DNA of 64,000 nucleotides from Acidobacteriota bacterium. Lineage in GTDB: Bacteria > Acidobacteriota > UBA890 > WLXD01. The first letter of the stretch is position 1. Each line of letters opens with the position of its first letter. Position numbers and translations under genes: made by a program. The stretch lies in assembly GCA_965248695.1 (NCBI GenBank), contig CBDFKD010000002.1:1216001-1280000 (forward strand), given 5' to 3'. The notes beneath the pieces are model-generated. The model saw nothing but the letters and a program-made list of their open reading frames with translations. It had not been told where the DNA came from and ran no database searches. Shown in pieces: positions 51,809 to 57,953 of the stretch.

Positions 51809-52270
51809 CTACGCGTCGTCGGGCATGAACTCCATCGACGCCGAGTTCAGGCAGTGCCGCTTGCCGGTCGGCGGCGGGCCGTCGTCGAACACGTGGCCGA
51901 GGTGGCTGGCGCAGCGGCCGCAGCGGATCTCGGTGCGCGTCATGCCGTGACTGTGGTCCGAGTGCTCCGCAACGTGGTCCGGATCGATCGGGTCGTTGAA
52001 GCTCGGCCAGCCGGTGCCGGAGTCGAACTTGTTGTCGGACCGGTACAGCGGCAGCTCGCACAGCCCGCACACGTAGGTGCCGGTCTCCTTGTTGTCGAGG
52101 AAGCCGCCACAGAACGGCGCCTCGGTGCCGGCGCGCAGCAGCACCCGACGTTCCTCGTCGGTGAGCCTCTCGGCAAGCTCGGCGATGCGCTCGGGGCCCA
52201 GCGGGGTGATGTCGTGGCCGGAAGCGGAGCGCAGGCCAGGCTGCGTGTGTTCGGTGGTGATTTCGCTCAT
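51809..52270 (-). CDS. msrB: Peptide-methionine (R)-S-oxide reductase
   Basis: [38 protein letters not shown]. Confidence 0.97.
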
Positions 52271-52384
52271 GGTGCTCTCGCAGGAGGCGTGTTTGATCGG
52301 ACGTGATCTCCACGGTTGTCTACGCACCAACGATAGGCCACCATCCCGAACATCTCGACCCAACATCGGCTCAGAGAGGCCAAC

Positions 52385-52413
52385 GTGAGCAACGGGCTGG
52401 TCGCAAGGTCCCG
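52385..52413 (+). pseudogene. Original 5' end of the FG-GAP gene, separated by transposon insertion
   Basis: GAGAGG SD, GTG AGC AAC GGG CTG GTC GCA AGG TCC CG; joins in frame to 54608 onward after removing the element and one TSD. Confidence 0.75.
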
Positions 52414-52422
52414 GGTAGTGTC

Positions 52423-53253
52423 CTAATTTGAACCTGCTTCGTCGATCAGCCGACCGATTGACCAAAGCGAGCCCGTCACCCCGGCTTCCATAGCGGGGGT
52501 GACTCGCAGAGTCTGGTGGATGCGCACGAAGTTATAGTGAGCGAAGTGCAGCGCCACGGCCGCGCGCAGGTTCTCGACCTTCTTGCTGAACGCGTTTGTT
52601 AGGCGAGTAAATCTGCGCATGTTCATGCGCATGGTCAGGTTCTGCCGCTCGATGTGGCTGGTGCAGATCTTGTCTGGTGCTGGCTGGCCGACGATCGCCC
52701 TGCGACGGGTGCTCGTGACGTGCGGTGGGCCGTACCTACCCGGACCGATTGGCTCGGCTTCGTAGCACTTTACGATCTGACCGTAGTCGACGTACGGACC
52801 GAATGCCTGCTCGGTCGCTTCGACGTAGGCGGCCAGGGCGTCGGAGGAAAGCTGCACGCGGTTGGCGAGGCGCGAAGCGACATCGCCCATGAACGAGGTA
52901 GCGGTTTCTAGGTCGCGCTTGCCGACGCGAAAAGCTGGGACGATCTTCGATTCCGGGTCCAGCGCAACGAACGTCCAGAAGTCACCCAAGCAGCGCGGGT
53001 CATCGGAGAGCTTTAGGTGGCGCTGTTTCTTCCCGACATAGGCCCAGATCTCATCAACCTGAATCTGCTCGCAAGGAAGGTTCTGCATCCGGTCATCCAT
53101 CGCCGCCGCGCAACCGCTCCCGACGCGGACGAGCAACCGCATGATGGTGTCGCGGTGAACGCCGGTCATGCGCTCTGTCGCGCGAATCGAGCAACCCTCG
53201 ACCAAGCATCGGATGACCGCTTCTTGCTTCTCTCGCTTCAGGACGTTAGCCAT
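52423..53253 (-). CDS. IS1-family single-ORF DDE transposase (HTH, no N-terminal Zn finger)
   Basis: [58 protein letters not shown]; TAG stop inside the TIR. Confidence 0.9.
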
Positions 53254-53277
53254 GTTGTTCTCCTTAGCATGGAGAAC

Positions 53278-53306
53278 AATCTAGCATACAGTCGGAGATT
53301 AGCCAA
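53278..53306 (-). promoter_or_regulatory. Putative sigma70 promoter of the transposase
   Basis: TTGGCT-17 bp-TAGATT with upstream TG; AAGGAG SD downstream. Confidence 0.5.
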
Positions 53307-53367
53307 CTTCCTGCTTGACTAAATTCGGGATTATATGCGAGATTAGTCTGGAAGTGGGGCGGACAAC

Positions 53368-53460
53368 GGAAGGTGACCCATTGGATGGTCCAGTAACGGG
53401 GTTTACACTCGGAGGGCTCGCTGTCACCGCAGCGAAGGGGTTCGACTCCCTCACCTTCCG
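53368..53460 (+). tRNA. Non-canonical tRNA-like gene (8/4 or 9/3 allo-tRNA type), putative anticodon UUA
   Basis: Acceptor GGAAGGTG(A)/(T)CACCTTCC plus discriminator G; D arm ATTGG-ATGGT-CCAGT; anticodon arm CGGG-GTTTACA-CTCG; long V arm TCGCTG..CAGCGA; T arm GGG-TTCGACT-CCC; no encoded CCA. Confidence 0.75.
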
Positions 53461-53513
53461 CTATCAGCATCCCATGGAAGGATAAGTGTAGCATCGACAG
53501 GAGGGCCTATCGA

Positions 53514-54293
53514 ATGGCGAAATCGCGTAGTCCTCGGAAGCCGTCAATTGACTTAGAGCGCGCAGTGGAGCTGGCCACGATACTTCACAGGCAGATTCTC
53601 AATCATTCTTCCGCCAAGGAAACCGTTCTGCAGCACTGGGGATACTCGCCGAAGAGCAGCAACGGGCTTGTGGCATTCGGAGCGTTGCGTCAGTTCGGAC
53701 TGATCGACCAGAGGCGCGGCCAAGACGCGAAACTTAGCCCCTTGGCTCTCGAGATTGTGCTGGATGAGCGGCCCGATTCTCCCGAACGCGACGAAGCTGT
53801 CTGTAGGGCAGCTTTGAATCCGATACTCCACCAGGAACTGTGGAGCAAGTACGCCGGTAAGCTACCTTCAGACGCTGAAATCAAGTTGTACTTGCAGCGT
53901 GACAAGAGCTTCACTCCGAAGGGTGCCGAAGATTTCATCAGCCAGTTTAGGGCAACAATCGCATATGCTAATCTGGACGCATCGGGCAACGGGGCCGAAG
54001 AAACAAGCCCCGAGCAACGGGAGCAAGACGAGTTGATCCCTTCCGAATCATCCGCAAACAGACAGCCCGCTACGCCACCGCGCGTGCCCCTAGAGGGCGT
54101 AGCGCAGATAGACCAGGCGACCTTCCCGCTCGATGAAGGGCCAGCGGTTCTGCAATGGCCAGCTGATCTCAGTCTCGCCAGCGTCGAAGAGTTCGAGGCC
54201 TGGCTTGATCTGGTGAAGAAGAAGGTCCGCCGTGCGTCAACAGCCCGTTCACGGCAGCCGGATACTGAGGATGACCGAAGTAGCGCCGACTGA
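53514..54293 (+). CDS. Transposon cargo protein of unknown function (possible winged helix)
   Basis: GGAGGG SD; RSPRKPSIDLERAV, GALRQFGLI; 259 aa. Confidence 0.8.
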   Translation: MAKSRSPRKPSIDLERAVELATILHRQILNHSSAKETVLQHWGYSPKSSNGLVAFGALRQFGLIDQRRGQDAKLSPLALEIVLDERPDSPERDEAVCRAALNPILHQELWSKYAGKLPSDAEIKLYLQRDKSFTPKGAEDFISQFRATIAYANLDASGNGAEETSPEQREQDELIPSESSANRQPATPPRVPLEGVAQIDQATFPLDEGPAVLQWPADLSLASVEEFEAWLDLVKKKVRRASTARSRQPDTEDDRSSAD

Positions 54294-54573
54294 GCTACAG
54301 CGCCACGTCGAGCGGCTGCACGGCTGCCACGCAGAGCACCAGAAGGCCGTAGCCGTCCGCGAGGAATTCCAGGGAGAGGTGGCTTGGGAAGGCGCGGTCC
54401 ATATCTACAGCCTCACGGACCATCCCTCAGCGACACGCTGCTACGCGTGGTCATCGCCCGTAGAGGGCTCCGAGAATCGCCGCTTTTACGCTGTATTGCA
54501 CACGGAGAGGGTTGATTCTCCTGTGAAGGCCGTCCGGGCGGCGATCGTAAGCGACCACGGGTCGCAAGCCTGA
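54271..54573 (+). CDS. Small transposon cargo hypothetical protein
   Basis: Overlaps the upstream stop region; VERLHGC..WEGAVH..RCYAW..FYAVL..SPVKAVRAAI; ends next to the TIR. Confidence 0.75.
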   Translation: MTEVAPTELQRHVERLHGCHAEHQKAVAVREEFQGEVAWEGAVHIYSLTDHPSATRCYAWSSPVEGSENRRFYAVLHTERVDSPVKAVRAAIVSDHGSQA

Positions 54574-54614
54574 TTCCCGATTCAAATTAGGACACTACCA
54601 GGTCCCGCGGTGTC

Positions 54615-57600
54615 TTGCTTGTCGGGCTGGTGATATCGTCCTCGTCGGCTACTATGCCCCGACTCGGCCAAGTGCCGGCGGCTTCGTGGTTCAGCCCACC
54701 GCACAGAGCCGCGATCGTTTCGAGCGGGGAGGAGTCCTGGGGGCACGCCGCCGGCCGCGGAATCCTGGAGAGCGAATACCACATCCGGCAACTGCCGGTG
54801 GCCGGGTATCAGAGCGCCAACCGTGCTCAGGGCTACCGCGCAATCTACGAGGCCGACGGGTTCGTTCTCGAGCCTCGTGCTCCGGTGGCCCCCGGCTGGC
54901 GCCTGCAACTCCGGCTTGCCCGTATCAGCGTCGGAGCTGCGACGCTGGTGCCCATGGTCGCGCCAACGTTCCGCGTCGACGACAACAGGCTGCGCGTGGC
55001 GCACGAGGGGTTTCACATCGACTATCGCAACGACGAAACCGGGATGCGCCAGGACTTCGTCATCAGCAGCCCGCCGCAGGAGCCAGTTGCGCGCATCATT
55101 GTGGAGCTTGCGATTGCCGGCACTCTCGACGCTGATCTTCGTTCGGCACACGAAGTCGCCTTCGTCGATCCGGCGACCGCGAAACGCGTGGTGGCGTATC
55201 GAGACCTTCAAGCCCAGGACGCCACCGGCCGACGTCTCCCCGCCAGCATGCAACTCGAGGCGCGGGAGTTGCGACTCGAGGTCGACGCCACCGGGGCGAC
55301 GTTCCCGGTTACGATCGATCCCCTCTCGACGACGTCGGTGTGGAGCACTAACGGCGTAGTAAATTCGTGGCACGGCCGCAGCGTCGCGGGCGTCGGAGAC
55401 GTCAACGGCGATGGCTACGACGACGTCCTGGTCGGCGCCCCGGAGCAGAACTTGGCCACCGGCCAGGTTTTTCTCTACAACGGAGCGGCCGACGGCAACC
55501 TGACAGTGGGATTCCAGGCCGGAGGTAACGGTCCTGGCGAGAACTTCGGGCGGAGCGTCGCCCCGGCAGGCGACTTCAACAACGACGGCTACGCCGACTT
55601 CGTCGTCGGCTATCCCGGGGGCGGGCCGGTAGGCCAAGGGATGGTCTTCGTCTACCGCGGTGGACCGGTCAGCCCTGCCTACGAGATTGCCTGGGCCGGA
55701 ATCTCGGGTCAGAACAGCCTGTTCGGTTTCAGCGTCGCCAGCGGCGATGTGAACTGCGACGGCTTCATCGACATCGCCGTCGGAGACCCGTACCTGAACG
55801 CTGGATCCGGCTTTGTGGGACGGGTGCACATTTATTTCGGCTCGGCCGGCGGCTTTCCGAGCGCCGCGGATTGGACTGCCGACGGCGACATAGCCAACCT
55901 CCAATACGGCTACTCGTTGGCCATCGCCGACGTCAACGGCGGCTGTGACGACCTGGTCGTGGGCGCGCCTGGAGGGACTGAAGGCCTCACTTCCGACGTC
56001 GACGGGTTCGTCGACATATTCGCCGGCGTAGCGGGCGGAGCGCCTGCTAGCTCGCCCTCCTGGACGCTGTCGGAGCCCGGGATCGCGAACTTCGGCAACC
56101 GTGTCGCGCCTGCCGGTGATCTCAACGGCGACGGCTACGACGAGATACTGATCTCGTGGCCGACGTACTGGGTCAACTCCTCGACAGACCAGACGGGCAC
56201 TGTGTCCGTCTACTACGGCAGCGCTTCTGGACCAATGACCGGCAGCACCTCCGTTTGGCAAGCACAGGGCCCGGTCGGGATGCAATCCCGTTTCGGCAGC
56301 GGCATTTCCACCGCCGGGGATGTCAACGGGGACGGATACGACGACATTGTCGTTGGCGCCCGCGCGGCTAACGAGGCCCACGTCTACTTCGGCTCAGCGG
56401 GGGGCCTGGCAGAGGTGCCGAATGTTTCGAGCACCGGGCCGACGTTGGCGCCGGACTGGACCGCCCAGGGGGCAGCTCCCGGAGATTGGTATGGAGATGC
56501 CGTCGCCGGTGCCGGCGACGTCAACGGCGACGGCGTCGATGATGTGCTCGTCGGAGCGCCGCACGAAAGCAGCGTGGGCAACTGGAACGGCCGCGTCTAC
56601 GTTTACTTGGGAATCCGAGTCGGTCTCCCCGCTGCCGCCGACTGGAGCTATCCCAACGGAGCCCAGAGCACGGCGGTGCTCCAGAGCCTTGACGAGGCCT
56701 TGCTGGGGTTGAGCGTCGACAACCGAGGCGACATCAACGACGACGGCTATGACGACATCGCTGTCGGCGCACCCTGGTACGACACCGGCGTCGTCGACGG
56801 CGGCGCGGTCTTCGTATTCCATGGCGGAGCCGCAGGTCCGTCGCTGAACTACAACTCCGTCAAGACGGTCACCGACGTCCCCTACGCCCACTTCGGATAC
56901 AGCGTCGCGTTCGTGCGTCAATCCGACGATGACCCGTTCGACAAGCTGCTGGTGGGAGCCCCCGACTACGACAATCGGGGCCGCGTCTACCTCTACCCGG
57001 GCTCTAGTTCCGGGTTGGTGGGCTCTCCTTCATGGGTTCGTGGAGTATCACGGCAATTCGCCAAATACGGCCACAGCGTCGCGTCCGCCGGCGATACCAA
57101 CGAGGACGGCTACGAGGACGTTATCGTCGGTGCCCCCAGCCATGATTGCTACTCCTGCAACTCGCTGACGCGGGAGGGACGGATCTACATCTACTATGGC
57201 GCTTCCTCGGGGCTGAACAGTGGCCTCGCCGAGACCCGGATCGAGGGCGATGTGAGCTACTCGCGATTCGGTCATAGTGTCGGGGCGGCCGGCGACGTCA
57301 ACGCCGACGGTGTAGACGATGTGGTCGTCGGCGCGCCCTACTACCGAAACGGGCAGTTCAGAGAGGGTCGTGGCTACGTGTTCGCCGGCGTCTCGGGCAC
57401 TGGCGTAGCAACTCCGGCGATGTGGACGGCGGAAAGCAACCAGATCATGGCCCAGTTCGGCGCCAGCGTGGCGGGAGCCGCAGACATCTTCGGCGACGGG
57501 GTCGCCGACATCGTGATCGGCGCCCCGCGATACGACCCTTCCGGGCAGTCGCGGGGCGCCGCCTTCGTGTACAGCGGCTCGGAAATCGGGCTGTGGACGG

Positions 57601-57953
57601 CGGCCGGCTCGACGATGCTCGGCTACTGGCCGACCGGGCAACTCGGGCACGCCGTGTCTGCCGCGGACGTCGACGGCGATGGCCTCGCCGACGTTGTGGT
57701 TGGCGCTCCGTACTACGAAGACGGTGAGGTCAACGAAGGAGCAACCTTCGCTTACTACGGTTCTCCTGCCGGGATCGGGCCGCTTCCCGACTGGACCATG
57801 GAGGGTGGGGCCACGTTCGCGCGATTGGGCTTTGCCCTCGTCGGGGGCGGAGACGTGAACGGCGATGGTGTGGCCGACGTCGTGCTGACTGCTCCGTCCG
57901 CGGTCGGACAGGGTCCCGGCGGGCTGCAACTGTACTTGGGCGTGGCGCGCTAG
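54615..57953 (+). CDS. FG-GAP / integrin-alpha repeat protein, native start displaced by the transposon
   Basis: Many GDVNGDGYDD..VGAP repeats. Confidence 0.9.
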   Translation: MLVGLVISSSSATMPRLGQVPAASWFSPPHRAAIVSSGEESWGHAAGRGILESEYHIRQLPVAGYQSANRAQGYRAIYEADGFVLEPRAPVAPGWRLQLRLARISVGAATLVPMVAPTFRVDDNRLRVAHEGFHIDYRNDETGMRQDFVISSPPQEPVARIIVELAIAGTLDADLRSAHEVAFVDPATAKRVVAYRDLQAQDATGRRLPASMQLEARELRLEVDATGATFPVTIDPLSTTSVWSTNGVVNSWHGRSVAGVGDVNGDGYDDVLVGAPEQNLATGQVFLYNGAADGNLTVGFQAGGNGPGENFGRSVAPAGDFNNDGYADFVVGYPGGGPVGQGMVFVYRGGPVSPAYEIAWAGISGQNSLFGFSVASGDVNCDGFIDIAVGDPYLNAGSGFVGRVHIYFGSAGGFPSAADWTADGDIANLQYGYSLAIADVNGGCDDLVVGAPGGTEGLTSDVDGFVDIFAGVAGGAPASSPSWTLSEPGIANFGNRVAPAGDLNGDGYDEILISWPTYWVNSSTDQTGTVSVYYGSASGPMTGSTSVWQAQGPVGMQSRFGSGISTAGDVNGDGYDDIVVGARAANEAHVYFGSAGGLAEVPNVSSTGPTLAPDWTAQGAAPGDWYGDAVAGAGDVNGDGVDDVLVGAPHESSVGNWNGRVYVYLGIRVGLPAAADWSYPNGAQSTAVLQSLDEALLGLSVDNRGDINDDGYDDIAVGAPWYDTGVVDGGAVFVFHGGAAGPSLNYNSVKTVTDVPYAHFGYSVAFVRQSDDDPFDKLLVGAPDYDNRGRVYLYPGSSSGLVGSPSWVRGVSRQFAKYGHSVASAGDTNEDGYEDVIVGAPSHDCYSCNSLTREGRIYIYYGASSGLNSGLAETRIEGDVSYSRFGHSVGAAGDVNADGVDDVVVGAPYYRNGQFREGRGYVFAGVSGTGVATPAMWTAESNQIMAQFGASVAGAADIFGDGVADIVIGAPRYDPSGQSRGAAFVYSGSEIGLWTAAGSTMLGYWPTGQLGHAVSAADVDGDGLADVVVGAPYYEDGEVNEGATFAYYGSPAGIGPLPDWTMEGGATFARLGFALVGGGDVNGDGVADVVLTAPSAVGQGPGGLQLYLGVAR

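Follow-up and report, generated by a model that had tools for sequence, protein, structure and literature searches.

An IS1-family transposon of Acidobacteriota carries an allo-tRNA-like gene with a 9/3 acceptor branch and a stop-codon anticodon

We analysed a stretch of 64,000 nucleotides from an Acidobacteriota bacterium (assembly GCA_965248695.1, contig CBDFKD010000002.1, positions 1,216,001 to 1,280,000), hereafter called the window, in which a transposon of the IS1 family of insertion sequences (IS) encloses a small gene for an RNA of the tRNA class. The transposon holds a transposase gene on the minus strand and, on the plus strand, the RNA gene followed by two open reading frames, ORF1 and ORF2 (Table 1). 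An initial annotation had described the RNA as a 93-nt cloverleaf with TTA in the anticodon position of the loop GTTTACA, and the sequence reads as described. It had also likened the RNA to the allo-tRNAs, which have 8/4 or 9/3 acceptor and T stems and among whose 9/3 representatives are forms with Arg, Leu and UAA-stop anticodons (Mukai et al. 2017, Nucleic Acids Res 45:2776, PMC5389517).

The transposon is bounded by terminal inverted repeats of 19 bp and flanked by an 8-bp target-site duplication; IS1 elements produce target duplications of 8-9 bp. The same element lies elsewhere in a second genome of the same genus (G005, locus L011), where homology with the window starts and stops exactly at the repeats, the flanks are different and the 8-bp flanking duplication differs at one base. 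The repeats, the target duplication and this second copy show that the RNA resides within a mobile element, as had been proposed. The terminal repeat, with 0-2 changes, also ends related elements in other genomes, and complete elements in G026 (L171 5707-9205), G072 (L172 806-4713) and G472 (L180 436-3025) enclose the RNA. The transposase matches PF03400 (DDE_Tnp_IS1; E 4.7e-9, 37.1 bits, cut-off 24.1) and reaches 70.5 bits with the NCBIfam model transpos_IS1, below the equivalog cut-off of 100, which makes it a distant IS1 member. Its helix-turn-helix (HTH) and DDE regions lie in one ORF, the classical insA/insB organisation with a -1 frameshift not being encountered, so that the element belongs to a single-ORF subgroup; the ISfinder classification includes such a subgroup. 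The transposon is complete and intact, and was apparently inserted recently.

Table 1. Position of the transposon, its genes and its neighbours in the window.
Feature	Position	Strand	Remarks
MsrB/SelR-domain gene	51809-52465	-	PF01641, E 6.4e-48
8-bp target-site duplication, left copy, AGGTCCCG	52406..52413	.	identical to 54600-54607
Transposon	52414-54599		2186 bp
Left terminal inverted repeat, 19 bp, GGTAGTGTCCTAATTTGAA	52414..52432	+	inverted-repeat pair; homology with G005 begins here
IS1-family DDE transposase, 276 aa, N-terminal HTH	52423..53253	-	PF03400; TAG stop within left repeat
Variable transposase-RNA spacer	53254..53367	.	51.6% identical, with indels, between window and G005; TTGAC motif in both copies
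Allo-tRNA-like gene, 9/3	53368..53460	+	93 nt; tRNA-Sec model alignment, fold, covariation
Acceptor stem of RNA gene	53368-53376 with 53451-53459	+
CCC of RNA gene	53377..53379	+	potential partner of GGG 53414-53416 in the minimum-energy fold; extra 3-bp helix enclosing D and anticodon arms
D arm of RNA gene	53380-53394	+
Anticodon arm of RNA gene	53397-53411	+
Anticodon TTA	53403..53405	+	UUA, complementary to UAA; in 7-nt loop GTTTACA, followed by C37
Variable (V) arm of RNA gene	53418-53435	+
T arm of RNA gene	53438-53450	+
Discriminator G of RNA gene	53460	+
ORF1, 259 aa	53514..54293	+	variable cargo; winged-helix-like N-terminal domain, disordered linker, small C-terminal domain
ORF2, 100 aa	54271..54573	+	accessory protein of IS1 subfamily; 126 homologs, none with a Pfam domain
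Right terminal inverted repeat	54581..54599	-	perfect 19-bp partner
8-bp target-site duplication, right copy, AGGTCCCG	54600..54607	.
FG-GAP repeat protein gene	54615-57953	+	1112 aa; PF01839, 13 repeats

Standard searches register the RNA gene at most below threshold. ARAGORN calls no tRNA gene across the 64-kb window and no Rfam family matches the RNA gene at gathering score. In E-value mode on positions 53200-53650, the model for selenocysteine tRNA (tRNA-Sec), RF01852, aligned over its entire length (positions 1-91) to 53368-53459; it scored 28.8 bits, below the cut-off of 47, with an E-value of 0.001 over the 451 bases of the search. Folded alone, the RNA reaches -39.9 kcal/mol (z -2.31), which was equalled by 1 of 200 shuffles and is, taken alone, only suggestive of structure. 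The RNA is not a bacterial tRNA-Sec, as judged by its score under 47 bits, its UUA rather than UCA anticodon and its 9/3 rather than 8/5 branch; nor is it a canonical 7/5 tRNA, as judged by the lack of detection with standard models, the 9/3 branch and a C instead of a purine at position 37.

The window and G005 elements are 93.6% identical in the transposase, 94.6% in the RNA, 96.2% in the RNA-ORF1 spacer, 94.6% and 41.6% in the N-terminal and C-terminal parts of ORF1 and 86.1% in ORF2. At this divergence the RNA is no better conserved than its neighbours, and wider relatives were therefore needed. A search pattern made from the ends of the window RNA gave 1 match in the window, with 0 expected. 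It matched at least 119 stretches in metagenome contigs, from which 80 loci were taken further; ordinary class-II tRNAs also match it. The window and G005 copies were used to build a model (R1), which set apart 10 sequences, scoring 54 bits or more, from all remaining ones, scoring 45 bits or less. Three members came from genomes reached via ORF2, independently of the RNA pattern, and seven from 151 genomes of one Acidobacteriota family scanned with a 13-sequence model (R2). The R2 scan was positive in 9 of these 151 genomes, two of them known already, and in the host genome it scored only the window copy highly (97.6 bits), the next match being the real tRNA-Sec (40.5 bits). The resulting alignment, A7, contains 20 RNA copies. 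An IS1 transposase or ORF2 is present in the available flank of 16 of them and L176 has the repeat, which brings the IS1-associated copies to 17 of 20. The copy L175 lies 68 bases from a DDE_Tnp_1 transposase, which is of a different family, L111 has only an ORF1 homolog in its flank and L174 is at a contig edge. The pairing and covariation figures that follow are from alignments fitted to the model, eight members were gathered with a pattern that fixes the acceptor ends and the T-loop, and kinship among the sequences inflates shuffle statistics.

Standard pairs fill 96.5% of the 603 pairing cells of A7, compared with 76.3% in shuffled alignments and 44-54% with slid partners. Changes on both sides were found in 22 of the 31 pairs, the covariation score was reached by 0 of 500 shuffles, and the results on 10 and on 13 sequences agree with those on 20. 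Within the acceptor stem, pairs G1-C72, G2-C71 and A3-U70 are invariant and pairs 4, 7 and 9 covary. The D stem comprises 5-6 pairs, all 6 covarying, under a loop of 3-4 nt (YGG(Y)), and 5 of the 6 pairs of the V stem covary. All 20 members have G19, U33, T54, T55, C56, A58 and G73, and the elbow formed by the GG of the D-loop and the TTCRA of the T-loop is conserved or nearly invariant. The last pair of the anticodon stem is G.U in 12 of the 20 copies, and such G.U pairs identify the plus strand as the transcribed one. The Sec-like D arm, long V arm and G discriminator first noted in the window are thus features of the family. The division of the 12-bp branch, which had been left between 8/4 and 9/3, is settled by the ninth acceptor pair: it is AU in 6, UA in 6 and CG in 1 of 13 sequences (UA 11, AU 6, CG 1, other 2 in all 20), and the fourth T-stem pair that an 8/4 split would require is GU in 5, unpaired in 6 and a gap in 2 of the 13. 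Since the ninth pair covaries and the alternative fails, 8/4 was rejected and the architecture read as 9/3. The extra nucleotides that had been remarked before the V arm are present as GGG and can pair with the CCC at positions 10-12; this pairing is 100% possible in the 20 sequences and includes one covarying pair (CG 18, UA 2), in a helix that was not in the model used for alignment. A core of five helices is thereby weakly supported. These comparative data show that compensatory changes keep the 9/3 cloverleaf in elements whose transposases share 52-59% identity with that of the window, and that the gene is a real, structured gene of the tRNA class under selection.

A decaying tRNA or allo-tRNA pseudogene, hitch-hiking in the transposon, would agree with the failure of ARAGORN and of Rfam at threshold, with the weak anticodon stem and with the odd C37, and a published allo-tRNA pseudogene overlaps a transposon-related ORF (Mukai et al. 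2017, PMC5389517). We nevertheless judge it highly improbable in view of the compensatory changes across diverged copies. Moreover, the window and G005 RNAs are identical at 88 of 93 positions, and all five differences lie in loops (three in the V-arm loop, one in the T-loop) or turn a G.U into a G-C pair (one, in the anticodon stem). C37, the 4-bp anticodon stem and the CCC/GGG pairing are moreover themselves conserved, and decay would not produce them.

The Sec-like body and the best Rfam match, which is tRNA-Sec, point to another conceivable role, in which the RNA would enter the selenocysteine pathway: after charging with serine it would be converted by SelA and would insert selenocysteine at UAA or UAG. 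The host, with 5.9 Mb, 65.1% G+C and 59 ARAGORN tRNA calls, has a genuine tRNA-Sec (G000:C2:5559422-5559519; 70.2 bits at 5559426-5559519), and the pathway is therefore presumably present. Selenoprotein genes with in-frame UAA or UAG and a matching SECIS-like element are not in evidence, although no search aimed at them was made. With a tRNA-Sec score far under the cut-off and a 9/3 branch rather than the bacterial 8/5, we give this role very little credence. A second tRNA-Sec call in the host (G000:C2:4678307-4678404) is identical to the full gene in its 3' two-thirds and differs in its 5' part, the pattern expected from integration of an island into a tRNA gene.

The anticodon loop is NUUUACA in 13 members (anticodon UUA, C37) and CUCUACA in three (CUA, C37); the remaining loops, one member each, are CUUUAAG (UUA, A37), CUUUGCA (UUG), CUUAUCA (UAU, in L174) and CUUCCGA (UCC). 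A nonsense anticodon is therefore present in 17 of the 20 members, UUA in 14, as read in the window, and CUA in 3. By column, position 34 is U in 17 and C in 3, position 35 is U in 18, 36 is A in 17, 37 is C in 18 and 38 is A in 19. The nearest neighbours of the CUA members differ, which implies that U34 changed to C34 at least twice with the stop anticodon kept. Our leading reading, to which we assign slightly less than an even chance, is that the RNA decodes stop codons and acts as a mobile, low-efficiency nonsense suppressor carried by the IS1 element. Its transcript would be processed like a tRNA and would receive CCA post-transcriptionally, as is the case for most host tRNAs; it had been noted that the gene encodes no CCA, which is true but uninformative, as CCA is encoded in only 9 of the 59 host tRNA genes and absent from 50. 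The host seryl-tRNA synthetase could charge the RNA with serine through the long V arm and G73; the host tRNA-Ser genes share with it G73 and the acceptor start GGAG. The RNA would then read UAA, and UAG by wobble at U34, and the CUA variants would read UAG. By a rough count, host genes end in TGA in ~53%, TAG in ~39% and TAA in ~7% of cases, TAA being the rarest. Suppression would be expected to be inefficient because of C37 and the short anticodon stem, and the transposon would spread a mild stop-codon readthrough trait, with the RNA as an optional cargo outside the transposition machinery. Allo-tRNAs of both the 8/4 and 9/3 types, including CUA variants made from GCG and UUA ones, are processed, charged and used by ribosomes in E. 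coli (PMC5389517).

Several observations weigh against a suppressor. Three of the 20 members have a sense anticodon, and the conserved C37 occurs in 0 of the 59 host tRNA calls (A37 42, G37 17). A pyrimidine at position 37 weakens the decoding of codons beginning with U. The anticodon stem has only 4 supported pairs, the position beneath being mostly mismatched; both this short stem and the atypical C37 had been accurately flagged in the initial annotation, and together they speak for no more than weak decoding. Conservation extends over the entire loop, beyond the anticodon, which fits a weak codon reader or a recognition or binding motif equally well. The search pattern and the model took in the loop and the acceptor, which biases the collection towards similarity. 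A consensus scan of 53150-53650 found no sigma-70 consensus promoter and no terminator near the RNA gene. In the published material, a long anticodon stem is a described feature of allo-tRNAs, and six allo-tRNA(UAU) variants with irregular cores were inactive in E. coli (PMC5389517).

These points bear on a second reading, in which the RNA is a tRNA mimic that takes the fold of a tRNA, and might even undergo processing or charging, but does not decode, and the NUUUACA loop is a binding or recognition site. Such a mimic might act as a decoy for, or regulator of, an enzyme or toxin that targets tRNA; it might bind a protein of the transposon or, by convergent transcription, put a brake on the transposase-ORF2 operon. 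It would account for the conservation of the entire loop, including A38 and a C37 that is not tRNA-like, for the short anticodon stem and for the possible additional helix with its five-helix core. In the layout found most often, the RNA and transposase-ORF2 converge, and in G026 the element carries a Gp49/HigB-like toxin and an Xre antitoxin beside the RNA. Allo-tRNAs have been described near toxin-antitoxin systems, and the irregular allo-tRNA(UAU) are inactive in translation (Mukai et al. 2017, PMC5389517). The features conserved in the family are, on the other hand, those that serve tRNA processing and charging (acceptor pairs 1-3, G73, the elbow and U33), and the variation at position 34 retains a stop anticodon in all members but three. 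No constant partner is found, the cargo differing from one element to the next and ORF2 occurring mostly without the RNA; neither is the orientation of the RNA relative to the transposase fixed. We consider a mimic a real possibility, distinctly short of an even chance.

Upstream of the RNA, no motif common to 13 family members was found. A strong hairpin lies within ~60 bases of the RNA 5' end in L047, L060, L063, L156, L158, L111 and L051, followed in L047 by a T-run; these hairpins may terminate cargo genes lying upstream or belong to the precursor.

The initial annotation had the RNA working with the two co-oriented ORFs downstream, and had pointed out that the transposase ends in UAG. We therefore considered a suppressor that acts on these genes through programmed readthrough. 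In the window the RNA lies 53 nt upstream of ORF1, in the same orientation as ORF1 and ORF2, the transposase does end in TAG, and one block, made up of the RNA, the spacer and the N-terminal part of ORF1, is conserved between the window and G005 copies. The relatives do not bear this out. ORF2 was found at 15 loci in 13 of 401 sampled Acidobacteriota genomes. An IS1-type transposase adjoins it at 12 of the 15, in the order transposase-ORF2 on one strand at 9, and in most transposase-ORF2 loci the TGA of the transposase overlaps the start of ORF2. The RNA lies within 1.5 kb of ORF2 at 5 of the 15 loci and not at the other 10, and six ORF2-positive genomes without an adjacent RNA gave no RNA match genome-wide. 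Because ORF2 mostly occurs without the RNA, we regard it as an accessory gene of the transposon and the RNA as optional cargo. The RNA usually stands just beyond ORF2 on the opposite strand, and the order RNA, ORF1, ORF2 is a minority layout; relative to the transposase, the RNA is divergent in the window and convergent elsewhere. ORF1 accompanies the RNA in the window, G005 and L079 and is missing from most RNA-bearing elements. It was rejected as a constant partner, given that among its homolog loci L024-L029 only L026 has a tRNA, which is of the 7/5 Ser type and on the other strand. The stop codons are just as unpatterned: ORF1 and ORF2 of the window end in TGA, the ORF2 stops of relatives are a mixture of TGA, TAA and TAG unlinked to the presence of the RNA, and the transposase ends in TGA in 9 of 10 relatives' 3' ends (the tenth, L155, is doubtful). 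No conserved in-frame UAA or UAG was found in element genes, the sole TAG being in the ORF2 of L079, a copy with several frame changes. On these comparative data the cooperation with the two ORFs is not supported and is largely refuted, programmed readthrough was rejected, and we rate this model as most unlikely.

Neither ORF could be assigned to a known family. ORF1 has no match in Pfam, NCBIfam, PADLOC or PHROGs, and likewise no family match was obtained for its 15 aligned homologs (16 homologs were found in all). Its AlphaFold2 model has a mean pLDDT (predicted local distance difference test) of 78.1, and Foldseek returned weak winged-helix-type matches only (E 0.03-0.15). ORF2 is predicted with a mean pLDDT of 89.1 as an alpha-beta4-alpha fold. 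It too has no match in Pfam, NCBIfam, PADLOC or PHROGs, a protein atlas gives only 'hypothetical protein' clusters, and Foldseek against the PDB gave nothing at E 0.001 or better. In a wider structural search the best match was a TraM fragment (Z 6.2), within the range of common arrangements. Other elements have other cargo: the Gp49/HigB-like and Xre pair of G026 comes with a DUF3467 protein, G233 carries a DUF5343 protein, and L050 a P63C-domain protein whose end is 6 bases before the RNA. When the cargo proteins of four elements were compared with one another by BLASTP, each matched only itself.

In the window the transposon is inserted between the MsrB/SelR-domain gene and the FG-GAP gene, 7 bases upstream of where the latter is listed to start. 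In four genomes of the same genus that contain the left flank, homology breaks off ~130 bases short of the insertion point, the gene of the right flank does not adjoin and synteny differs. RNA-bearing elements abut the end of another related IS copy in G005 (L011:~1840-1857) and in G072 (L172:4723-4741), where the second repeat begins 10 bases past the element end, which suggests insertion beside or into sister elements. At L163:791-1423 (G334) a group II intron (RF02001, 122.9 bits; RF01998, RF00029) adjoins the truncated ORF2 of an IS1-type element.

Further irregular tRNA-like genes accompany IS1 copies in the host. Four other IS1-family transposase copies or fragments, 46-60% identical to that of the window, each have one within ~0.8 kb (G000:C2:5219663-5222487, G000:C1:5-2050, G000:C2:2238653-2239808 and G000:C2:1400778-1402095). 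These genes are 75-76 nt long, lack a long V arm and are called by ARAGORN as 'Ser(gga)' three times and 'Ser(cga)' once; the one at C2:1401818 lies inside the right repeat of its element. Given 59 tRNA calls in 5.9 Mb, this adjacency is far above chance. At G000:C2:1393305-1393336 two terminal repeats stand head to head with nothing between them, forming a near-palindrome of 32 bases, which could be a minimal remnant or the footprint of an excision or circle junction. Odd ARAGORN calls in the host also include a 94-nt 'Cys(aca)' (C2:3177552-3177645), a 98-nt 'Pro(ggg)' (C2:4157204-4157301) and two 87-nt 'Ala(tgc)' that are identical and have a long extra arm (C2:1586595-1586681 and C2:5218723-5218809). 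In other genomes, L169:1501-1587 (G334) holds a different allo-tRNA-like gene with a GCG anticodon (49 bits with R2), which by eye is similar to the 8/4 'major' type, an abundant one in the published table, and L170:128-1585 (G072) holds 10 tRNA genes in 1.5 kb, among them a 92-nt 'Ile(tat)' call.

The irregular tRNA-like genes on other IS1-family copies of the host differ from that of the window, so that these elements could serve in general to shuttle non-standard decoding. In the broadest form of this view, which we put forward as a speculation and think unlikely as a whole, an IS1 subfamily of soil Acidobacteriota would be the vehicle of functional nonsense-suppressor allo-tRNAs that insert serine, or selenocysteine with SelA. 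Readthrough would become horizontally mobile and variable in copy number, and C37 and the short stem would tune it low. What is known of allo-tRNAs comes mainly from metagenomic fragments and from their use in genetic-code engineering, suppression and regulation being the candidates for their natural role. The present locus supplies what the literature has lacked: a genomic setting, the RNA being inside a complete IS1-family transposon, a coherent subfamily of 20 members with strong covariation, mostly nonsense anticodons and conserved non-standard features, and a built-in comparison between related elements with and without the RNA. If active, it would be a case of an insertion sequence that carries a stop-codon suppressor and can move it between genomes.

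Phages provide a parallel. Their suppressor tRNAs for stop-codon recoding are canonical 7/5 tRNAs, found in phages whose genes hold in-frame stops. There too a mobile element carries a tRNA with an anticodon matching a stop codon, but the vehicle described here is an insertion sequence with a 9/3 RNA, and its own genes showed no in-frame stops. Among IS1-family insertion sequences with passengers, the window element has the expected DDE_Tnp_IS1 domain, short terminal inverted repeats and 8-bp duplication. It departs from classical IS1 in its single-ORF transposase, in a translationally coupled ORF2 of 100 aa and in its tRNA-class cargo. In the portion of the literature on IS-borne tRNA or suppressor genes covered by our search, there was no report of a tRNA gene or stop-codon suppressor as an IS passenger.

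The closest relatives of the RNA itself are the published 9/3 UUA allo-tRNAs, with which it shares the 9/3 branch, the Sec-like D arm with a loop of 3-4 nt, the long V arm, G73, the UUA anticodon and an origin in Acidobacteria and soil. The allo-tRNAs, too, were first found as sub-threshold matches to tRNA-Sec models (PMC5389517). One UUA entry from peat metatranscriptomes, 'tRNA2, allo-tRNA', has by eye an acceptor stem and T arm in common with the window RNA. The UUA entries of the supplementary table that were considered here are of four types, all with A37-type loops (PMC5389517), and the loop motifs of the window family have 0 occurrences in the 257,722 characters covered. Compared by eye, these published UUA allo-tRNAs have CUUUAAA-type loops, A37 and longer anticodon stems, whereas the window family has NUUUACA, C37, a 4-bp anticodon stem and the CCC/GGG linkers; in the published descriptions considered here they also come without a defined transposon context. 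The published allo-tRNA(UAU) are similar in their irregular cores, for which a five-stem junction was suggested, in one copy that overlaps a transposon-related ORF and in the toxin-antitoxin genes nearby; in the present family L174 has a UAU anticodon and the G026 element carries a toxin-antitoxin pair. They are set apart, on their description in the text, by mutations that destabilise their stems and by inactivity in E. coli, whereas the stems of the window family covary and its anticodons are mostly nonsense; in structure, however, their five-stem-junction cores may overlap with the core of the window family. Furthermore, the vehicle of the window family, unlike that of allo-tRNA(UAU), is a complete IS1-family element with repeats and target duplication. 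A 2020 review repeats the points of Mukai et al. on allo-tRNAs. Since the length of the anticodon stem is listed, in the published text and in so far as considered here, as typical and not as a 'most striking' feature, we treat the RNA as a variant of the allo-tRNA class. Judged against the published table, it is best described as an untabulated, C37 and short-anticodon-stem subtype of the known 9/3 allo-tRNAs, travelling in a newly defined IS1 vehicle.

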